Source: a virus
Lineage: Duplodnaviria; Heunggongvirae; Uroviricota; Caudoviricetes
IMG/VR virus record: IMGVR_UViG_2718218360_000018
Reading direction: 5' to 3' (one strand)
DNA length: 16,202 nt
The notes beneath the pieces were generated by a model that worked only from the letters and a program-made list of their open reading frames with translations, was not told where the DNA came from and searched no databases. Position numbers and translations under genes: made by a program. Below are positions 11,902 to 12,712 of this stretch, piece by piece. Position 1 is the first letter of the stretch. Each line of letters begins with the position of its first letter.

Positions 11902-12242
11902 ATGTTTTCGAAATGGAAGGGTTTCTTCGCGGGAAATGTGTACCGCGAGATCTGAAAGTGAATGAAACAAATGCTGAGTATCTGGTGCGTAAATTCGATG
12001 AAGTACGTGCTGAGGCTCGCAACGAGGGTATTAACTATACCGCAAGCCGTCTTGCTGCTGCTTTCAATCACGGATTTATCAATAAGCCTTTGGCTGAAGT
12101 TTTCGACGTTACACGCATGATTCTGTCAGCAAAAGAAGAGTTAGCTAATGAATCGCATCCGATTGATGGCCTGTCCGGTGAATATGCAGAGAAATCCCTT
12201 GAAGAATGGGCGGAACGGCTTCGCAAAGGAGGCAGCCAGTGA
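11892..12242 (+). CDS. Hypothetical prophage protein
   Basis: 116-aa ORF overlapping the previous stop (ATG 11892) and translationally coupled to the next gene (GTGA overlap at 12239-12242). Confidence 0.55.
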   Translation: MRMNVFEMEGFLRGKCVPRDLKVNETNAEYLVRKFDEVRAEARNEGINYTASRLAAAFNHGFINKPLAEVFDVTRMILSAKEELANESHPIDGLSGEYAEKSLEEWAERLRKGGSQ

Positions 12243-12712
12243 CTGGACATGCAGCAATCCTCGACATGTGCTGTGGCAGTCGCATGTTCTGGTTCGATAA
12301 GAATGACGACCGGGCGATATTTAGCGATATCAGAAAGGAAGAGCACACATTGTGTGATGGACGACGCCTGATTATCAGTCCTGATCTGATAGCTGATTTT
12401 CGTGCACTACCATTTGCAGACGCATCTTTTTCGATGGTTATATTCGACCCTCCGCATCTTGAGCGTGTTGGTGATAACGCCTGGATGGGAAAGAAATATG
12501 GACGGCTGAATAAAGATACCTAGCGTGATGATTTGCGGCAGGGATTTAAAGAAGCCTTTCGTGTGTTGCGTCCATCCGGCGTTCTGATTTTTAAATGGAA
12601 TGAAACGCAAATACCTGTTCGCCAGATATTGGTACTGACCGACAGAAAACCTGTTATCGGTCAACGAACAGGAAAAAACGATAAAACCCACTGGATTATT
12701 TTTATGAAATAG
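12239..12712 (+). pseudogene. Small SAM-dependent DNA methyltransferase (DPPH motif) interrupted by an in-frame TAG
   Basis: Reading frame from GTG 12239 (AAGGAGG RBS) continues past TAG at 12521-12523 for 62 more codons in the same frame (RDDLRQGFKEAFRVLRPSGVLIFKWNE...), ending TAG 12710-12712. N-terminal part contains DMCCGSRMFW and FDPPH motifs. Confidence 0.55.

Follow-up and report, generated by a model that had tools for sequence, protein, structure and literature searches.

The DNA analysed here, referred to throughout as the window, is a stretch of 16,202 nt recorded in IMG/VR as a sequence of the Caudoviricetes (IMGVR_UViG_2718218360_000018), and it matches the chromosome of Escherichia coli O157:H7 with 99.9–100% identity. 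Most of it is a degraded prophage in dusA, and in the early-gene remnant of this prophage lies a methyltransferase gene at 12239–12712. RefSeq/PGAP annotates exactly this interval in strains TW14359 and C1-057 as a "SAM-dependent methyltransferase" pseudogene with an "internal stop". The features of the locus are as follows.

1668–14884, no strand assigned: degraded prophage in dusA, about 13 kb, from the integrase beside dusA through to the duplicate of the dusA 5′ end, according to the RefSeq annotation of matching O157:H7 genomes.
11892–12242, plus strand: upstream ORF of 116 aa, hypothetical protein WP_001242740.1, matching PHROGs of unknown function.
12226–12232, plus strand: Shine-Dalgarno sequence AAGGAGG, 6 nt 5′ of the GTG, read from the sequence.
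12239–12242, plus strand: GTGA start/stop overlap, formed by the methyltransferase GTG and the TGA of the upstream ORF (12240–12242).
12239–12520, plus strand: codons 1–94 of the methyltransferase pseudogene, with motif I (ILDMCCGS, residues 7–14) and motif IV (DPPH, residues 70–73).
12519–12523, no strand assigned: mutated Dcm site, CCTAG in the window for ancestral CCTGG.
12521–12523, plus strand: premature amber codon TAG, standing for ancestral TGG (Trp95).
12524–12709, plus strand: codons 96–157, now untranslated, with the conserved C-terminal part of the fold (GF.E..RVL.P.G.L.FKW...THW..F.K).
12710–12712, plus strand: natural terminator TAG, the same in the intact allele of strain E2855.

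Reading the sequence directly, a frame of 157 codons runs from GTG 12239–12241, and TAG 12521–12523 is its sole interruption; 94 sense codons precede this TAG and 62 follow it in one phase, and the frame closes at TAG 12710–12712. An earlier note on this DNA had described a single in-frame amber codon with the phase kept downstream, as well as a GTGA overlap with the upstream ORF, and both descriptions are borne out. The GTG start is well supported because a consensus Shine-Dalgarno sequence lies upstream of it at the spacing given above. The overlap recurs in relatives of the gene, and translational coupling through it is plausible. Only codons 1–94 would be translated. A stop-free run of 62 codons is expected by chance in about 5% of cases, (61/64)^62, and is therefore mildly unusual on its own; it is homology, not run length, that makes it certain that the frame after the TAG is true methyltransferase sequence. 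Pfam matches lie on either side of the stop, Methyltransf_25 at residues 7–69 and Methyltransf_11 at residues 97–118 (24.2 bits against a cut-off of 21.2), in agreement with the note's statement that methyltransferase-like sequence flanks the TAG both ways. With tryptophan restored at codon 95, the product matches the PHROGs family phrog_954, "DNA methyltransferase", over residues 3–157 with E = 2e-86.

In E. coli E2855, the prophage integrated at dusA contains an intact orthologue (L008, 3745–4218), which encodes WP_000145671.1, a "class I SAM-dependent methyltransferase". The two genes are of equal length, follow an identical yfdR and an identical WP_001242740.1 gene, and share the GTGA overlap and the TAG terminator. 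They differ at codon 95, which is TGG in E2855, and the surrounding E2855 prophage is less deleted. The nucleotide identity is 473/474, with G in E2855 and A in the window at position 12522, which converts TGG (Trp95) to TAG, and A12522 is the lone mismatch over 2194 aligned bases. The suggestion in the earlier note of a very recent nonsense mutation is thus strongly supported. The methyltransferase gene is also intact in a second dusA-integrated relative, O145:NM FWSEC0002.

The distribution of the two alleles was determined in 5426 complete E. coli genomes using a 55-mer centred on position 12522, such that every megablast seed spans the mutated base. The TAG 55-mer was found in 201 of these genomes, in a single copy per genome and always on the chromosome, and among the matches listed, the serotype is O157 wherever it is named. 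The number of genomes carrying at least 80% of the window is also 201. The TGG 55-mer, with unchanged flanks, is present at 240 places in a further 201 genomes. These belong to many serotypes, O111, O121, O104:H4, and O145 among them, and in certain O157:H7 strains the match lies in a second prophage. No sequence variation separates the copies of the TAG allele; there is no later decay to confirm relaxed selection, and a very recent event predicts the same. The recurrence of the allele also bears on the explanation of the TAG as an error of sequencing or assembly. The identical TAG 55-mer is present in two IMG/VR contigs besides the 201 complete genomes, and because the latter are independent assemblies, an error can be discarded with near certainty.

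Lambdoid prophages, Stx prophages among them, carry close paralogues, such as WP_000172332.1 in O157:H7 F6321 and a copy in Stx2c_EH0430. The F6321 paralogue (L010, 2745–3230) is an intact protein of 161 aa encoded in another lambdoid prophage between two ead/Ea22-like genes, and it shares the 55-mer flanks of the window at the Trp95 codon. Since some strains carry an intact paralogue, methyltransferase activity may persist in part of the O157:H7 lineage.

Codon 95 is highly conserved. Among the best 80 IMG/VR relatives (81–99% identical), 78 have TGG at this position with an open frame, and the remaining two are the contigs with identical copies of the window allele. An alignment was made with eight intact homologues from phages of Proteobacteria, Actinobacteria, Firmicutes, and Bacteroidetes, in which the distant members (45–63% identity) come from phages of Enterobacter, Acinetobacter, Corynebacterium, Listeria, Streptococcus, and Porphyromonas. 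Trp95 is kept in all eight, and the residue encoded elsewhere at the TAG position, a question raised in the earlier note, is therefore tryptophan. The alignment contains 41 invariant columns, 21 of which lie beyond residue 95: G102, F103, E105, R108–L110, G114, L116, F118–W120, L131, P138, G141, T150–W152, F155, and K157. In a tblastn search of phage genomes, 245 of 256 matches span 80% or more of the 157-residue product of read-through, which means that homologues do not stop at codon 95 and that similarity to methyltransferases continues past it. The stop at codon 95 thus cuts a large conserved part out of a single Rossmann-type domain. In six IMG/VR relatives (L054, L059, L062, L067, L071, and L083), the methyltransferase frame exceeds 175 codons and runs past its usual end, and a C-terminal extension or a fusion with the next gene is therefore suggested there.

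The conservation of Trp95 is also relevant to the alternative offered in the earlier note, namely that the gene is expressed only under amber suppression. Suppression or programmed read-through of TAG 12521–12523 would give full-length methyltransferase in low or conditional amounts, and basal UAG read-through does occur in E. coli. The perfectly kept frame after the TAG speaks for this view, but a recent mutation predicts it equally. To our knowledge, wild-type E. coli has neither an amber suppressor nor pyrrolysine machinery, and an ARAGORN scan of the 16,202-nt window found no tRNA genes and hence no suppressor tRNA near the methyltransferase gene. TAG is also the terminator of both the methyltransferase gene and the ORF at 14100–14636, so efficient suppression would lengthen normal products. 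In addition, the stop is not conserved, with tryptophan in nearly all the close relatives and in all the distant homologues aligned, and the TAG allele is restricted to one clonal element. Expression through suppression is accordingly left unsupported and appears very unlikely.

The position of the mutation suggests how the amber codon arose. On the opposite strand the ancestral site reads CCAGG, and G12522 is the partner of its inner C, the base that Dcm methylates. The gene contains two Dcm sites, and a stop codon could arise in it by 50 different single-base changes (16 of them transitions), two of which are of the Dcm-deamination type, the observed change among them; dcm itself is present in 5358 of the 5426 E. 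coli genomes. Deamination of 5-methylcytosine at Dcm sites also underlies the classical amber hotspots in lacI, which reportedly lie at CCAGG, as described by Coulondre, Miller, Farabaugh and Gilbert in 1978. The window resembles the lacI hotspots in that a C-to-T transition of the inner C in CCWGG makes an amber codon, here on the complementary strand. The lacI hotspot affects the coding strand, where CAG (Gln) becomes TAG, whereas in the window it is the template strand that bears the methylated C, and a Trp codon (TGG) is changed to TAG; moreover, lacI provides a measured mutation spectrum, and the window a single natural event. Deamination of Dcm 5-methylcytosine likely produced the TAG, a post hoc match for one event with a uniform-mutation prior of 2/50 (2/16 among transitions).

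In the proposed pathway, the 5-methylcytosine in the opposite-strand CCAGG would have deaminated spontaneously to give CTAGG, which accounts for the single G-to-A transition at 12522 that changed codon 95 from TGG, for a conserved tryptophan, to TAG. Ribosomes starting at GTG 12239 would then terminate at TAG 12521–12523 and release a 94-residue fragment that would keep motif I and DPPH. Judging from the conservation described above, this fragment is expected to be inactive because its last 62 residues are missing.

The intact protein is, on sequence grounds, a minimal class I SAM-dependent methyltransferase of 157 aa. L8, D9, and G13 of motif I and D30, the acidic residue after strand 2, are invariant in the alignment, as are D70, P71, P72, and H73 of motif IV (DPPH). 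The motif (D/N/S)-P-P-(Y/F/W/H) marks methyltransferases acting on exocyclic amino groups (N6-adenine, N4-cytosine, and N2-guanine), and DPPH thus suggests that the substrate of the intact enzyme is probably the exocyclic amino group of a nucleic-acid base. The family is named "DNA methyltransferase" in databases and occasionally "TRM11 family", and the word "DNA" in the name is an annotation-level assignment. No target recognition domain is evident in the 157-aa protein. Searches of PDB sequences with the protein and with a 9-sequence profile returned only generic class I methyltransferases at E values of 1e-3 or weaker, an NCBIfam search gave nothing above the cut-offs, and a literature search found no substrate assay for any member of the phrog_954 type.

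The family phrog_954 comprises small phage methyltransferases of about 150–160 aa, such as gp44 of Listeria phage A006, gene 28 of Streptococcus phage T12, and gp53 of Corynebacterium phage PSonyx. These three share 45–63% identity with the window product and have in common with it motif I, D30, DPPH, Trp95, and the FKW and THW blocks, whereas the window copy is cut off by a nonsense codon. Two other candidates were considered as relatives. YfdM of K-12, the "putative methyltransferase" of CPS-53, was tried as a truncated relative and shows no similarity. M.EcoGI and M.EcoGII, the orphan adenine methyltransferases of E. coli O104:H4, are likewise orphan genes on cryptic E. coli prophages, but they were rejected as the family of the window gene on size and motif order. 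They are β-class enzymes of 349 aa with an N-terminal DPPY, a central target recognition domain, and a C-terminal FxGxG (PMC5778455), whereas the window protein is of 157 aa with an N-terminal motif I and a central DPPH. It has been reported that M.EcoGII is unexpressed in its native strain (PMC5778455).

The same gene has been independently knocked out in two relatives. In Klebsiella phage ST16-OXA48phi5.1 (L003, 1489–1971), W82 is changed from TGG to TGA inside the other Dcm site of the gene, and two adjacent CDSs are annotated; in phage PhiR42_1 (L001, 3003–3500), K119 is changed from AAA to TAA, and the frame is lost further downstream. Since the stops fall at differing codons, the pattern is that of random decay and not of conserved recoding. 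Meanwhile, PHROGs contains families built of methyltransferase fragments, namely phrog_11564 (residues 2–93), phrog_6151 (residues 57–157), and phrog_7811. The N- and C-terminal fragment families, together with the paired CDSs of the Klebsiella phage, could be taken to favour a split enzyme, in which the 94-aa N-terminal piece assembles with a re-initiated C-terminal piece (e.g., from TTG 12533, 59 aa). However, the breaks W82 to TGA, K119 to TAA, and W95 to TAG reveal no conserved split point, the sequence read has no Shine-Dalgarno before TTG 12533, and the cut lies within the single Rossmann-type domain. The fragment families therefore fit frequent breakage rather than a designed split, and a working split enzyme is even less credible than suppression.

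It may also be asked whether loss of the methyltransferase was selected and not neutral, the enzyme being costly in lysogens and the Dcm sites on two Trp codons serving as an off-switch. Such a view would draw on the three independent nonsense changes in enterobacterial prophages together with the fixation of the amber codon in every genome with the O157 element, and if it were true, the cost could lie in a conflict with methylation-dependent restriction or in off-target methylation. We regard selected loss as improbable, though somewhat less so than the two mechanisms that would preserve function. The preferred reading, a recent TGG-to-TAG change at Trp95 that made this 157-aa phage methyltransferase a pseudogene in a degraded dusA prophage of an O157:H7 sublineage, is held with high confidence.

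The state of the host element is that of a decaying prophage. In the RefSeq annotation of matching O157:H7 genomes, it retains fragments of capsid, tail assembly, tail tip, DUF2303/yfdQ, and 3′–5′ exonuclease genes, and it also holds a DinI-like gene, three DUF1076 genes, a tail-fibre gene, and a Lom-family gene. The integrase gene in the window is interrupted by a copy of ISEc8 (IS66 family; about 2405–4847) that comprises tnpA, tnpB, and the gene of a 512-aa transposase. In O157:H7 C1-057, by comparison, the integrase of the element is intact and the ISEc8 copy is in yfdR; the position of ISEc8 in the element therefore varies among strains. Comparison with the dusA prophage of E2855 reveals two deletions in the window. 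One, of 1463 bp at about 13012, truncates a hypothetical gene and the 3′–5′ exonuclease gene; the other, at about 10819, brings a tail-tip gene fragment into direct contact with one of yfdQ/DUF2303. At its far end, the element has a 105-nt duplicate of the dusA 5′ end (14780–14884), as expected for an integrase specific to dusA.

The dusA site is unoccupied in O157:H7 Sakai (L012), and the element is therefore limited to a subset of O157:H7. An identification of the element with Sakai prophage Sp17 is wrong, given the empty Sakai dusA site and the location of Sp17 at 3.48–3.50 Mb (PMC7430833). The three DUF1076 genes stand in tandem on the minus strand at 5686–7689, encode proteins of 213, 209, and about 190 aa, and are intact. 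DUF1076 is the NleG family of type III effectors. Because these genes are intact amid fragmentary structural genes of the phage, this cargo appears to have been kept in a dead prophage. The literature search returned no report specific to a named dusA/NleG element or to the methyltransferase of the window.

It can be seen from the above that the locus is a pseudogene of the ordinary kind within a prophage in decay, that RefSeq already flags it as a pseudogene, and that the proposed origin of the amber codon at a Dcm hotspot is the sole small addition to the existing annotation. The significance is small, this being another inactivated gene in an O157:H7 prophage remnant. The methyltransferase ORF should not be counted as active in annotation or methylome work on O157:H7 strains with the dusA element. 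The TAG allele, which 201 of the 5426 complete genomes carry, marks the lineage of that element, and its divergence from an intact orthologue by one base, within a Dcm site, would provide a clean natural example of the conversion of a codon to amber by deamination of 5-methylcytosine.
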